Shown in pieces: positions 19,809-26,655 of a stretch of DNA of 64,000 bases. A program made the translations under genes and the position numbers. Below the pieces are notes generated by a model. The model was not told where the DNA came from, did no database searches, and saw only the letters and a list, made by a program, of their open reading frames with translations. The stretch is taken from positions 27,280,001 through 27,344,000 of the forward strand of contig OZ024754.1 of NCBI GenBank assembly GCA_964016885.1. Direction: 5' to 3'. Source of the stretch: Eledone cirrhosa (taxonomy: Eukaryota). How positions within the stretch are numbered: the first letter of the stretch is position 1; every line of letters begins with the position of its first letter.

Positions 19809-20075
19809 CACACACACACACACACACACACACACACACACACACACACACACACACACACACACACACACACACACACACACATGTATATATGCATGTA
19901 TATATGCATGTATATATATGTAAATTTTCAGTATATGTTCGTTGTTTACCGACACCTCAGTGTGCAGATTGGAGCATTCGACGAAGTACGCAGGTTGGTT
20001 TGTTTACTCCGTAGTAATGTAAAATAAAATAATTAAGTCAAATATTTAAAATTTGGCTTCGTTTATTAAAGGTGT

Positions 20076-20130
20076 ACTGCTATATATATTTCGGTGACAG
20101 CCATCCTTGGCTGTGACCTCTTCAGGCAGT
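20076..20130 (-). ncRNA. Type I hammerhead ribozyme (left arm)
   Basis: Exact reverse complement of 20366-20420. Confidence 0.85.
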
Positions 20131-20365
20131 CCGAATTGGTGTGGTAGAGACGGGTACACATGTTGTTGAGGTGTTTAACTTCGTCAATACTCCGATATGC
20201 CCAGTTCCTGGTTGGGTTGTTATTTCTCTGAGGAACTGGAATCATATAATATGATTCCAGTTCCTCAGAGAAATAACAACCCAACCAGGAACTGGGCATA
20301 TCGGAGTATTGACGAAGTTAAACACCTCAACAACATGTGTACCCGTCTCTACCACACCAATTCGG

Positions 20366-20420
20366 ACTGCCTGAAGAGGTCACAGCCAAGGATGGCTGTC
20401 ACCGAAATATATATAGCAGT
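20366..20420 (+). ncRNA. Type I hammerhead ribozyme (right arm)
   Basis: Stem I ACTGC/GCAGT; core CTGAAGA; stem II GGTcACAGCCA-AGGA-TGGCTGTcACC; GAAA; minimal stem III T-ATAT-A; cleavage triplet AUA. Confidence 0.85.
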
Positions 20421-20499
20421 ACACCTTTAATAAACGAAGCCAAATTTTAAATATTTGACTTAATTATTTTATTTTATATATATATATGTATATACGGAT

Positions 20500-21225
20500 T
20501 ACACATATGTGAACCTTGATCCCGAGAATCTACCGCATCCCAAGGATTTTACTCAGCATTCCACCACATCCCTTTACGGAATTACCTTTACGACTCACCC
20601 CGGACATACACCCCAAAAAATGTTTTCCCCACACGTCACCTACATCCACAACACGCATAAACACCACACACACACGTGCGTACCACCACATATTTACACC
20701 TTCAGCCTCCGGAATCCTCTCCCCCCACCCCTCTATCCACACGCACACACACTCCGACCTACACCCCACTCCACACACATCTCTTCCTGAACATGCAACC
20801 CCGTTCTTCACCCAACCCTTGCTTTCACATACACACACACACACACACACGTACACCTACACACACACACCACCTTCAGCCCTCCCTGCTCGGACACCCC
20901 GTCTCCCTCTTCCCACTCCACCCGCTATCACTCCTACATGCCCCACACCCTTCCACCACCTGTTTCACTCCATTTTAATTTTATTTTGATCATGCCTTTA
21001 TTTTTAATTTCATTTGCACCGTTTCCTCTCACCCCCTCTTTTCTATATGTCTCTCCACCACTCCCCTACACACCCTTGGAACTCTGTTCCCACACACTTT
21101 TCACCTGAAGAAGGGCTTATGCCCGAAACGTCGTTCCCCACCACCACCCCACTCTCAAGAGCGTGAAACTAATAAACCTTTGTTCGTACTGCCTCTCTGT
21201 TTTGTTCCCGTTCAATTTTTGACTA
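20500..21225 (+). mobile_element. Probable PLE 3' UTR / pseudo-LTR (C-rich) ending in (TA)n
   Basis: HHR at 21101-21136 followed by AATAAA (21171) and (TA)n; bounded by TA runs. Confidence 0.55.
21101..21136 (+). ncRNA. Minimal type I hammerhead ribozyme
   Basis: CTGAAGA-A-GGGC-TTAT-GCCC-GAAAC-GTC; loopless palindromic stem III; weak stem I. Confidence 0.7.
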
Positions 21226-22414: not shown

Positions 22415-22735
22415 AGAGAGAGAGAGAGAGAGAGAGAGAGATAGTACATGAGAATAAAAGATAAACATAGAGCGAAGGGGGAGAAGAGTGTAAGAAGGAA
22501 GAGAGAGTTGTGTTATAGAGAGAGAGAGAAAGAGCCAGTGTAACAGAGAGAGAGAGAGGAAGAGCGAGTGTAACAGAGAGAGAGAGAGAGAGAGAGAGAG
22601 ATGGAGAGAGAGTGAGAGACGGAAAGGGAGGTTGTGTTATAGAGAGAGAGAGAGGAAGAGCGAGTGTAACAGAGAGAGAGAGAGTGAGAGTGAGAATGAG
22701 TGAGAGATGGAGAGAGAGAGAGAAGAGATAAAAGT
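22415..22735. repeat. (GA)n compound repeat with recurring GAGCGAGTGTAACA / GTTGTGTTATA interruptions
   Basis: Direct reading. Confidence 0.75.
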
Positions 22736-23103
22736 AGCGGATGCTATATTAATATTTGTGCTTGTCGCATAATAAGGGAGTTAGTAGCTGTGTTGGGGAG
22801 TTTTGGTGGTAGTAGTGGGGGTTATGGTTGATGGTAGAGACGGTGGTACCGGTGGTGGTACATATGTTGATATAGGTAGGGGTCATAGTAGTTGTATTGG
22901 TGAAAATAATGGTGGCGGTGACAGTAGTGTTATTGGTACTAGTATAGGTGACTGACTATATAGTTGGTAGTACTGGCGGGGATATAGAGGTGATAGCTGT
23001 GTGTATATATATATATATATATATGTGTGTGTGTGTGTGTGTGTGTGTGTATGCGCACACACATATACATACATATTTATACATGTGCATATATATATAT
23101 ATA

Positions 23104-23452
23104 TAACGAAGGAATTGTTGTAAGGAACCAGATGGACCATAACGCACCAGAGTACTCAATACGTAGGGTAGTAGAGTGGGTAATAGGAACAAGTAGGACC
23201 CCGACGGCAGATCTCAAGCCGTTTCGACGGCTATTTCTGGACTAAATTCTAATTTAGTCATAAATTCTAATTTAGTCGTACCTTTTCCTATATATATATA
23301 TATATATATAAAACGAAGGAAATGTGGTAAGGAACCAGGTGGACCATAACGCACCAAAGTACTCAATACTTAGAGTAGTAGAGTGGGTAATAGGAACGAG
23401 TAGGACCCCGACTGCTGAGCTCAAGCCGTTTCGACGGCTAATTCTGGACTAA
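23104..23452 (-). mobile_element. Two tandem family A copies (6: 23104-23290; 7: 23311-23452), short arms collapsed or lost
   Basis: Each has tail + long arm up to TTCTGGACTAAA; separated by (TA)n. Confidence 0.8.
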
Positions 23453-26125
23453 ATATATATATATATATATATATATATATGCATATATATATAAATATGT
23501 ATGTATATGTGATGTGTGTATGCGTTTTTCTGTGTGTGTGTGTGTGTGTGTGTGTTTTTCTGTGTGTGTGTGTGTGTCTGTGTTTCTGTGTATTTCTGTA
23601 AATATAACCAAGGCAGGAGCTAATAATAGTGTACTAACTATTGCGATAAGATTCTTAGCAACTGATTTATCTAAAGGTGAACGTGTGGGCGGACAAATAC
23701 ATATATATATATATATATATATATATACATACCATAGACACACACACACATACATACAAACACACATGTATGTATACATACTCACACGCATACGATATAT
23801 TAATATGTTAATATATTATCATGTTTATTAATTCCCACTTAACTACATAGCGTTTGCTGTCAACATTATATGTGAGATCTGCATCATTTTTAAAAGCCTC
23901 TTCTTTAAAAGAAAACATAATAGTTACATCACAATTTTTATCTCATGCTAGGGGGAGGAGGGCGTACATTGAATAAGTCTGATCATATTGTAGGTGTTTT
24001 AGACTTTCATTAGAGAACGAATACCTAACTTCTGTTCAAGGAGAGCTTACATGCATGGGCCTTGAACTCCTGCTGGAATCGCAGCGACGCCGTTCCTGAT
24101 ACATACCCAATTTCCACCAGAGAAAGAAGAGAGAGAGAGGGGGGGGGGGGACAGGCAGAGAAATAAATATATACAGAGAGAGAGAGAGAGAGCAAGGAGA
24201 GATCTATATTGACAACTAAAGGCGAAGTTGATTACGGTGGGATTTGAACTCACTGTACTCAGAGCAGAAACAAATAGAGCGATGCATTCAATCCAACAAT
24301 CTAATGGCTGCCAATTAACTGACTATAGGGAGAGTTTAGTAGCTTATAACTATTTATAGTTCTCACGTATTCGGACTCAGCTTAACAGGTGAGTTTAATT
24401 TGCATAACAATGCATGTGTAAGAACATGGAGTAATTAATCAGGTCAGCATGATATCTCGGCTTCGAAGAAATCAAATTCGAAATCTTTCGTAAATCACAT
24501 TCTATCCTTGCCCCTTCACAAAAATGAAAGGGTTGGAAAATGTAGTCCTTTATAAACTGTGTCTGTGTAAAAGAAGAAAGATCACAGATGAAATGTTGAA
24601 AGGTGGTTTGCCTGAGTGTCACTGCCATGTATTTAACGCAGGGAATTTTCTTTAAATCTTTCTAACACTGAAAGATTGTTAGAATATGTTCTAATCTTTC
24701 AAACATCAATCCCAGATTCCAACGCCCTTGTTATTTGGATAAGGTCAAAATACTGGACAGATTTTATATGGACGGAAACTTTATACATTGGCGCAAAACA
24801 CGTTTAAGATGTGTATATAACATATGTAACATTTACTCCGCCAAAATATTTTTCAGACAAGAATGAAGGGTAAAATCTAAAAAATGGCTAATTTTTATAT
24901 ATTTCCATATAAGTGAATATTTGTTTTTGTTTATTTTAGGCTCGGATATCAGCTTTAACCGGTCAAATCATCACATCGCACAGTTTATTCTCATTCACTA
25001 CAAACTTTACTTCCTGTTGCCAGCTGTAAACCTATTCATGTTTTGTATCACTTTCAGCTGACAGTTCTCATTCTAACAAGGCAAACAGGTGAATGCAGTA
25101 ACAGCATATGTACCTGCAGGCAGTAAGGTTTTGAAATTCATAATAGTTTTGTAAATGCATTTTCCAAGTAGAAGCCCCTTAGTGATAATTGTAAATGATT
25201 AAGGATTTAACAGATTAAGTTGTCGCATTGAAGCTGTAGAATATAAATTATTCTTTAGTTGTAATAATTATAAACAAATGAAAACAATTGTAATACCTCT
25301 ATAGCCACGGCTGAGTCTTGTTTCCTCTAAGGAAGGCATGTACGTAGTCACAATGCCTAATAGAGACACCATCTAATTTTTCTCACAGATAACATCCTCT
25401 CATCGTTTATCCACAACAGGCATAGGATGAAGAGATATCATCCACGCCCCCCCCCCCCACATATATATATATTCATAGAGCAAGTGGAAAAACTCAGAGC
25501 TATGTTCTTCCAATATACGTTGGTAGAAACCCTCAGATGAAAGATCAAGGAAAACAGTGCTCTGTCAGTTGGAAGGGAACTTATTTAGTGTAAACTAAAT
25601 TTCATGCATTTAACATGAATGTGCTACTAATGGTTCCGGGGTCTAGTCGTCACCACCACTGTATAATGGAGGGGGCACTTTTAAAGTGGCCCTTCATTCA
25701 GTCACGTGGACAAAAATATGAAAAAGGGAATTTGATCAACCATTGGTAGCACGTACATATTAAATGTATCAAACTTTGTTTAGACTATACACACATACAT
25801 TATATATATATATATAATATTTGTTAATCGAACTTTAGTTGCAGTACAGTATGTACTTGTTTTAAGGCTATCACAAAAACTCAATGGATCGAAACTTAAA
25901 AACAAACATTAAGTCCAGAGTTAAACGCCGCAGGTGCACCAACCGAAGGCACAAACTATACATACAACAAAATAACGATATTTATACACACACACACACA
26001 CACACACACACACACACATATATATATATATATATATATATATATATATATATATATATATAATATATATATATATATATATATATAAATATATATATAT
26101 AAATATATATATATATATATATATA

Positions 26126-26655
26126 AATTAAGTCAAATATGTAAAATTTGGCTTCGTTTATTATAAATTATAGATATATTGCTATATATATTTCGGTGAC
26201 AGCCATCATTGGTTGTGACCTCTTCAGGCAGTCGGAATTGGTGTGGGAAAGGCAGGTACACATGTTGTTGAAGTGAGTTTTACTCCGTCAATACATCAAT
26301 ATGTCCAGCTCCTGGTTATGTTGTTGTTTCTCTGAGGAACTGGAATCAGAGAAATAACAACATAACCAGGAGCTGGACATATCGATGTAAATGACGGAGT
26401 AAAAAACACTTCAACAACATGTGTAGCTGTCTCTACCACACCAATTCGGACTGCCTGAAGAGGTCGCAGACAATGATGGCTGTCACCGAAATATATATAG
26501 CAGTATATCTATAATTTATAATAAATGAAGCCAAATTTTACATATTTGACTTAATTATTTTAAATTACTCCGGAGTAAACAAACCAATCTGCGTACTTCG
26601 TCGTGTGCTCCAATCTGCATACTGAGGTGTCGGTAAACAACCAAGATATACTCAA
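26126..26655 (+). mobile_element. Fold-back family C copy 2, HHRs at 26178-26232 (-) and 26450-26504 (+)
   Basis: Arms 26126-26333 / 26347-26556, tail to 26655; ACTGC-CTGAAGA-GGTCGCAGACAATGATGGCTGTCACC-GAAATATATATA-GCAGT. Confidence 0.9.

Follow-up and report, generated by a model that had tools for sequence, protein, structure and literature searches.

Introduction

Insertions of Penelope-like retroelements carry an inverted, 5'-truncated copy beside the 5' end and a tail of 30–40 nucleotides (nt) at either end, with a bias towards (TA)n targets (Craig et al. 2021; PMC8557442). In the accessible part of that text, the origin of these inverted repeats and tails is called undefined. According to Schostak et al. 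(2008; PMC2377424), the inverted repeats differ in size from one copy to the next, and do so in transformed flies as well, and the palindromic head-to-head junctions of Penelope elements in Adineta vaga were read by Arkhipova et al. (2013; PMC3846280) as a result of self-priming. Here, about 20 local palindromes, detected by self-comparison, are described from a 64,000-nt stretch of the Eledone cirrhosa genome (contig OZ024754.1, positions 27,280,001 to 27,344,000 of the forward strand; hereafter the window, in whose coordinates all features are given). These palindromes look like insertions of Penelope-like retroelements, an identity that a first-pass annotation of the stretch had missed. Taken together, the membership of families A, B and C in this class and the formation of their palindromes at integration are highly probable. 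That they are 5'-truncated insertions of which both arms were copied from one donor during integration, by two joined complementary DNAs (cDNAs), is the reading towards which we lean.

The sequence shows arm variants shared locus by locus, one-sided tails, variable centres, a hammerhead motif in family C and an endonuclease frame in element G. In LINE-1 twin priming, two target-primed cDNAs are likewise joined head to head by microhomology, and they copy adjacent parts of the RNA, which leads to an inversion. In the palindromes described here, by contrast, the two cDNAs would overlap, giving a palindrome, and would have fixed start points.

One-sided tails and head-to-head arms

The window is DNA of animal type, AT-rich and laden with microsatellites, with a repeat landscape that may resemble that of an octopus, and the palindromes examined lie in a (TA)n insertion context. 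In 17 of the 21 palindromes, a (TA)n run is found no more than 6 nt beyond one arm, and the other arm is separated from any such run by 39 nt or more; in none do both arms adjoin (TA)n. The exceptions to this one-sided rule are A5 and N, which aligned poorly, and K and I2, which did not fit as scored. The extension on one arm is the same sequence across nine copies of family A, two of family B and two of family C and is therefore a tail of the element. The two arms of a palindrome are between about 88 and 100% identical; as the masking of TA runs produced false mismatches (in C1, C2 and F), identities were taken from other alignments. In C, D, E, F and G, the hammerhead sense is directed away from the centre. 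The arms are therefore paired head to head, and an inverted copy at the 5' truncation is thus present. Endonuclease-bearing Penelope-like elements share with these palindromes the head-to-head inverted 5' copy of variable size, the tail at one end, the (TA)n targets and the hammerhead motifs near the 3' end. They differ in that most copies described here are reduced to arms of 50–390 nt, the whole insertion being a hairpin, and in the tails, which measure 39–175 nt. A partial-tandem pseudo-long terminal repeat (pLTR) was not seen in the 64-kb window, nor was a full-length copy.

Family A comprises A1 (4163–4375) and further copies at 4741, 5349, 6040, 9343, 23100, 23307, 37010, 45565, 56781 and 62955. 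One of these, A4 (6040–6187), consists of an untailed inverted arm joined straight to the tail alone. A2 (4741–4934) and A3 (5349–5542) are inverted neighbours of equal centre length with a deletion on the tailed arm only, possibly the outcome of a whole-copy event. At the inner end of A6 (23236–23290), an 8-bp fold-back is repeated twice, next to a 15-nt untailed remnant. This remnant has three differences from its own tailed arm and one from that of A3, being nearer to another subfamily than to its own arm, which may faintly hint at arms derived from two RNAs. Family B is represented by B1 (15265–15690, tail on the left) and B2 (30634–30995, tail on the right), the tailed arm of the latter being about 8 nt longer inside. 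Single palindromes are D (44037–44240), with a zero-spacer centre and the tail on the right; E (31815–32235), with an 87-nt spacer and the tail on the right; and F (6637–7530), with 387-nt arms, three mismatches and a 77-nt spacer. Immediately to the left of F lies an inverted pair (6252–6376 and 6504–6623) at 90% identity around a SINE-like (short interspersed element) fragment.

Arms share variants by locus

As proposed in the first-pass annotation, the arms of a palindrome share variants that other copies lack. Every variant it quoted was located in the window sequence on both arms of the copy named: AAGGTGTACTGC at 20069 (plus strand) and 20416 (minus strand), its sole occurrences in the window, TTATAAATTATAGATATA at 26161 (plus) and 26504 (minus), GGTCAAGACCCAGAC at 4173 (plus) and 4268 (minus), and TAAGTTTTTAAGTTTTT at 30751 (plus) and 30828 (minus). 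By alignment, TAAAC is present on both arms of A8 and TTAAAC on both arms of A11. Grouping was judged by site-pattern counts instead of a maximum-likelihood tree, since the 52-column arms are too poor in signal, and these counts group the arms by locus and not by side in families A, B and C. Among the 206 core columns of the four family C arms, 22 (16 events) group by locus, none by side or tail status and none crosswise; for the four arms of family B, the corresponding numbers over 159 columns are 18 (10 events), zero and zero. Family A yields 46 locus columns, 2 side columns and no crosswise column over 15 pairs from six two-armed loci, the pairs being non-independent. The family A locus signal comes entirely from A1, A8 and A11, with A2, A3 and A9 having no arm-shared variant. 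As for the two side columns, one lies at the alignment edge and the other is a real 1-nt deletion of G on the tailed arms of A2 and A3.

Side clustering around a fixed centre, as expected of elements copied whole, is absent save for that one deletion common to A2 and A3. Short, near-perfect palindromes present in many copies in a TA context could suggest TA-targeting miniature inverted-repeat transposable elements (MITEs) or foldback DNA elements, and a fixed internal structure with symmetric termini was looked for. Instead, we found locus patterns, one-sided tails, variable centres, reads that run past the C1 centre into non-palindromic upstream sequence, a hammerhead motif and, in G, a retroelement endonuclease. 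An origin from such elements is largely refuted and very improbable.

Two parts of the original claim need qualification. The variants do occur on both arms, but many are subfamily-specific rather than copy-specific, given that they are common in public reads: the C1 core alleles are present in at least about one fifth of the raw reads at each listed site (among the 40 of 271 rows listed; a read proportion, not a copy proportion), and the 7-nt insertion of C2 recurs in two contigs of one public set (X1) and one contig of another (X5). Likewise, the centres differ within a family and are not fixed, yet they are clustered. All family A centres are confined to a stretch of about 35 nt of the element, and an arm end at 20243–20247 (C1 coordinates) is common to C1 and C2. 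The locus-wise sharing of variants supports the proposal that the hairpin is rebuilt at each insertion; however, given the published form of Penelope-like insertions and the self-priming proposal of 2013, this reading is not new. The palindromes are most appropriately classed as additional families of Penelope-like insertions, the structure of which is known.

An endonuclease frame in palindrome G

Element G (12725–14446, plus strand) consists of a probable tail (12725–12893), an inverted arm (12894–13103), a 1133-nt spacer and a direct arm (14237–14446), with no differences between the arms in 210 nt. Its two ends lie 171 and 0 nt from (TA)n, as measured from the arms. Its left extension is probably the tail, judging from this single copy. 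Both arms carry a CCGAAGA core, with one core change, in a predicted three-way, hammerhead-like fold. Enclosed by the palindrome is an open frame (13070–13531, plus strand) for a GIY-YIG endonuclease domain of the Hydra-type Penelope elements, in the same sense as the arm adjoining (TA)n. A HMMER search retrieved 3759 homologues of this frame at E ≤ 0.001 (best 2e-26), and several homologues of 696–911 aa, which show reverse transcriptase (RT) motifs, match it at or near their C-terminal end. The RT motifs of homologues P0015 and P0088 include RWK and DKT, while RT itself is absent from the window. In a word-index protein search, no longer relatives of the frame were found, whereas the HMMER search did find them, and Pfam gave nothing naming RT or GIY-YIG on the frame or its long homologues.

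The residues of the frame are C13-C15-C21 (CxCX5C), C111/C114 (CxxC), E117, N130 and C139/H141 (CxH). In section 11 of PMC8557442, CxCX5C, CxxC, E, N and CxH are given as the signature of the Hydra clade. Element G thus shares with this clade the CxCX5C, CxxC and CxH motifs and insertion into (TA)n, and RWK and DKT are present in its long homologues, but it holds the endonuclease part only; the comparison covers G and not families A, B and C.

Family C and its hammerhead motif

Copy C1 of family C has a tail (19925–20019, minus strand), a family sequence on one arm only that aligns with the tail of C2. It is followed by the tailed arm (20020–20247, minus), a single-base centre (20248) between two arms ending at the same element position, and the untailed arm (20249–20476, plus), which ends in (TA)n. 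The arms of 231 nt are 100% complementary. The tail base is marked by 21 X1 contigs that end at 20020, running into TA-rich flank. In C2, the untailed arm (26126–26343, minus) extends about 13 nt deeper into the element than its tailed partner (26342–26556, plus), to which it is about 91% complementary, and the tail (26557–26655, plus) ends in (TA)n.

A type I minimal hammerhead motif is located on the right arm of C1 (20366–20420, plus), with a mirror copy at 20076–20130 on the minus strand, and on the tailed arm of C2 (26450–26504). The hammerhead descriptor gave three matches in the window, all on C arms (three of the four being complete), and none in 100 shuffles. The minimum free energy fold is predicted to be a three-way junction. 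As described in the accessible text of PMC4209133, Penelope-type hammerheads have a long stem II, a short stem I and a palindromic stem III, with all of which the family C motif agrees. Over the whole window, Rfam returned microRNA-type families below the gathering score, and no hammerhead, among the matches listed (150 of 368).

Elsewhere, cores of the CTGAnGA type, and cores only, are present on both arms of D (CTGAAGA), E (CTGATGA) and F (CTGACGA). The motif is only partial in family A, where the sequence upstream of a non-palindromic copy, A10 (56735–56845, plus), supplies the remainder of a hammerhead-like motif, the core of which is off the consensus; one match was obtained and none in 300 shuffles, with a pattern composed after the match was seen. 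Adjoining C1, element H (20500–21226) has a C-rich body, a CTGAAGA core with a short stem II and GAAAC at 21105, and ends in (TA)n; it looks like a Penelope-type 3' end without an inverted partner. A further hammerhead-like core (CTGACGA at 63197, in 63188–63330) lies beside a decayed palindrome (63029–63191) that interrupts A11.

Short hammerhead-bearing repeats are also known as non-LTR retrozymes, non-coding derivatives of Penelope pLTRs which, according to the accessible part of the report (bioRxiv 10.64898/2026.07.22.740005), form head-to-tail tandem arrays. The repeats described here are likewise short, non-coding and hammerhead-bearing, but they are head-to-head pairs. Tandem monomers were not found; copies are head-to-head pairs or singles, and the direct neighbours A6 and A7 are split by (TA)n.

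Family C in public reads and contigs

The tailed arm and tail of C1 (19925–20250) were compared with two contig sets (X1 and X5) and two raw-read runs (X7 and X8), amounting to 3253, 31, 7873 and 6433 records. Family C runs past 20247 into non-palindromic DNA in 33 X1 contigs, 603 and 481 raw reads and one X5 contig, so the centre of C1 is not the centre of the family. Among the 15 joints listed (of 21), 11 are strand switches, at differing positions. Ten of these, as read, are 19961>20130, 20011>20102, 20022>20244, 20068>20246, 20105>20247, 20136>20247, 20144>20247, 20188>20235, 20243>20247 and 20247>20247; in those with a second position of at least 20235, the direction is settled as head to head. 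Together with the continuation past the C1 centre, strand switches at so many positions indicate that variable 5' truncation is present. In one X1 contig (20022>20244), an arm consisting of the tail only is joined at the tail base.

The joint at the C1 centre itself (20247>20247) was recovered from X1 in a single contig, and from the raw-read runs X7 and X8 in 16 and 4 reads, respectively; X1 may be the source sample. This recovery, the spread of arm identities and the tails common to several copies make it very unlikely that the palindromes are an assembly or amplification artefact in which polishing mirrored or equalised the arms. What such an artefact would account for is the full identity of the C1 and G arms, since in a family of many copies the differences between arms could be removed by polishing.

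Two joined cDNAs or one self-primed cDNA

For the formation of the palindromes by two cDNAs, the following course may be proposed. The endonuclease of the element would nick both strands of a (TA)n target, and reverse transcription would begin twice, at the distal end of the tail and at the tail base. Each cDNA would halt at a variable or preferred point, and the two 3' ends would then join head to head, in many cases through a short self-complementary word or as blunt ends. The expected outcome would be donor variants on both arms, a tail on one only, and either arm being the longer one.

The first-pass annotation had suggested that one arm is templated from the other. A model close to this, and to the self-priming proposal in PMC3846280, assumes the same Penelope-like elements with a single cDNA that primes itself, is resolved at the tail base and acquires its asymmetry through later deletions at the centre. 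In this case, the untailed arm should never extend further inward than the tailed one. The tailed arm is indeed longer inside in B2 and E, and C1, A2, B1 and D are symmetric to about one base. In C2 (about 13 nt), A8 (6 nt), A4 (where only the tail is left) and, if its left extension is the tail, G (1133 nt), the untailed arm reaches further, and separate deletions would be needed for these four and for the 20022>20244 contig. Copies A1, A9, A11, F, J, K, L and M are omitted from this tally, which needs native upstream sequence. Moreover, the A4 and 20022 junctions lie at the tail base, and the zero- or one-base centres of C1, A2 and D leave scant room for a loop. At the hot spot of family C, the native 8-nt self-complementary word has an energy of +2.1 kcal/mol as a fold-back and −7.0 kcal/mol as a duplex of two ends, so folding back would be unfavourable there. 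As reported in the accessible text of PMC11167929, both strands are nicked and extended in vitro by a protein of the Poseidon clade, which starts at two sites, one at each limit of the tail, and is a predicted dimer. The polarity mix, the contig joint at the tail base, the hot-spot energies and these in vitro data together favour two target-primed cDNAs.

Several points weigh against the joining of two cDNAs. Long perfect palindromes are unstable, which bears on deletion at the centre, and asymmetric centre deletion after snap-back would yield the same polarity mix. A small repeated fold-back at the inner end of A6 favours some snap-back. A2 and A3 share their centre length and a deletion confined to the tailed arm, and the tails exceed the published 30–40 nt. 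RT or endonuclease sequence for families A, B and C was not found in the window when 22 long homologues were used in tblastn, G alone being matched, so these families, whose copies are too truncated to show such a frame, are assigned by structure alone. On the hammerhead side, Rfam gave no hammerhead match on 20330–20470 and no CTGAnGA core was seen for family B in the window scan. As for the public data, an edge effect may explain the joints that end at 20247, since the reference stops near there, and X7 and X8 look like AATT-cut libraries with chimeric reads (a fraction of about 0.9 run on into unlike sequence), which is why their read proportions cannot stand for copy proportions. Finally, the start site used in vitro shows no difference between strands in the accessible text of PMC11167929 and alone does not explain why there is exactly one tail.

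With a single self-primed cDNA, one tail per insertion follows naturally. Snap-back also fits the identical arms of C1 (231 nt) and G (210 nt), the clustering of C arm ends at a native short palindrome and the microhomology at the A4 junction, which suits a deletion. As deletion can yield every asymmetry and the A6 fold-backs are present, snap-back stays the main rival, even though we consider it rather unlikely. In the accessible text of PMC3846280, palindromes at head-to-head junctions are read as products of the replication step, a reading that would apply here as well, and self-priming is inferred; that text holds no arm-sharing counts, polarity tally or dating.

A stricter form of the two-cDNA reading is obligate twin priming, in which a dimer would prime both target strands at two fixed start sites bounding the tail, with arms sometimes coming from two RNAs. 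We put this forward tentatively, as a possibility that falls somewhat short of an even chance. If it holds, every insertion would possess two identical arms and a single tail from the outset. This would explain the signature of inverted repeat plus tail in the whole class and provide a retroelement lacking long terminal repeats (LTRs) with an LTR-style clock for each insertion.

Because the structure is already known, the value of the window lies in its use as a test bed for the mechanism: with about 20 hairpins of several families in 64 kb, polarity, tails per insertion, centre words and arms of mixed subfamily can separate snap-back from the joining of two cDNAs. In a literature search that missed most subscription papers, neither counts of arm sharing nor twin priming nor an arm clock turned up for Penelope-like elements.

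Arm divergence and conversion

If the arms start out identical and conversion is rare, their divergence dates single insertions, as the first-pass annotation had proposed by analogy with LTRs. In family A, where such a clock looks workable and is plausible, arm-only changes amount to about 18 in 520 arm-sites (about 3.5%) and tail-private changes to 17 in about 400 (about 4.3%) over five loci. These similar rates point to independent decay without conversion, so the later intra-hairpin conversion offered as an alternative in that annotation is unneeded here. The arms of C2 have 6 and 8 single-arm changes. C1 does not fit: its arms do not differ anywhere in their 231 nt and lack a near-private core allele, whereas its 95-nt tail (19925–20019) holds four near-private substitutions (Fisher p=0.007; one locus, spotted post hoc). 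Conversion, polishing or chance could be responsible.

This contrast in C1, the common centre length and side-specific deletion of A2 and A3, and the clustering of centres in A and C would suit a reading in which some palindromes were transcribed or duplicated whole, with their arms homogenised afterwards by intra-hairpin conversion. The absence of any side pattern among the 26 events in B and C, the matching arm and tail rates of family A, and arm identities that do not, by inspection, track spacer length make this improbable.

If transcribed, the hairpins would be self-contained sources of double-stranded RNA. No RNA holder was listed, a result that has no bearing on expression. Palindromic repeats have been linked to hyper-editing, with heavy editing of Penelope in a lizard (PMC5625713, accessible part).

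Other features of the window

A short interspersed repeat, which we take to be SINE-like, occurs in several copies (19040–19420, 21430–21620), two of which are inverted 2 kb apart at 94% identity. Open frames resembling pieces of non-LTR retrotransposon open reading frames are found at 29495–30271, 27655–27999, 12209–12571 and 61228–61566; on the first of these, Pfam returned only DUF6451, below the cut-off. Tandem units, both trinucleotide-based and longer, form long arrays with a strong strand skew at 32900–36700 and 47400–50350.

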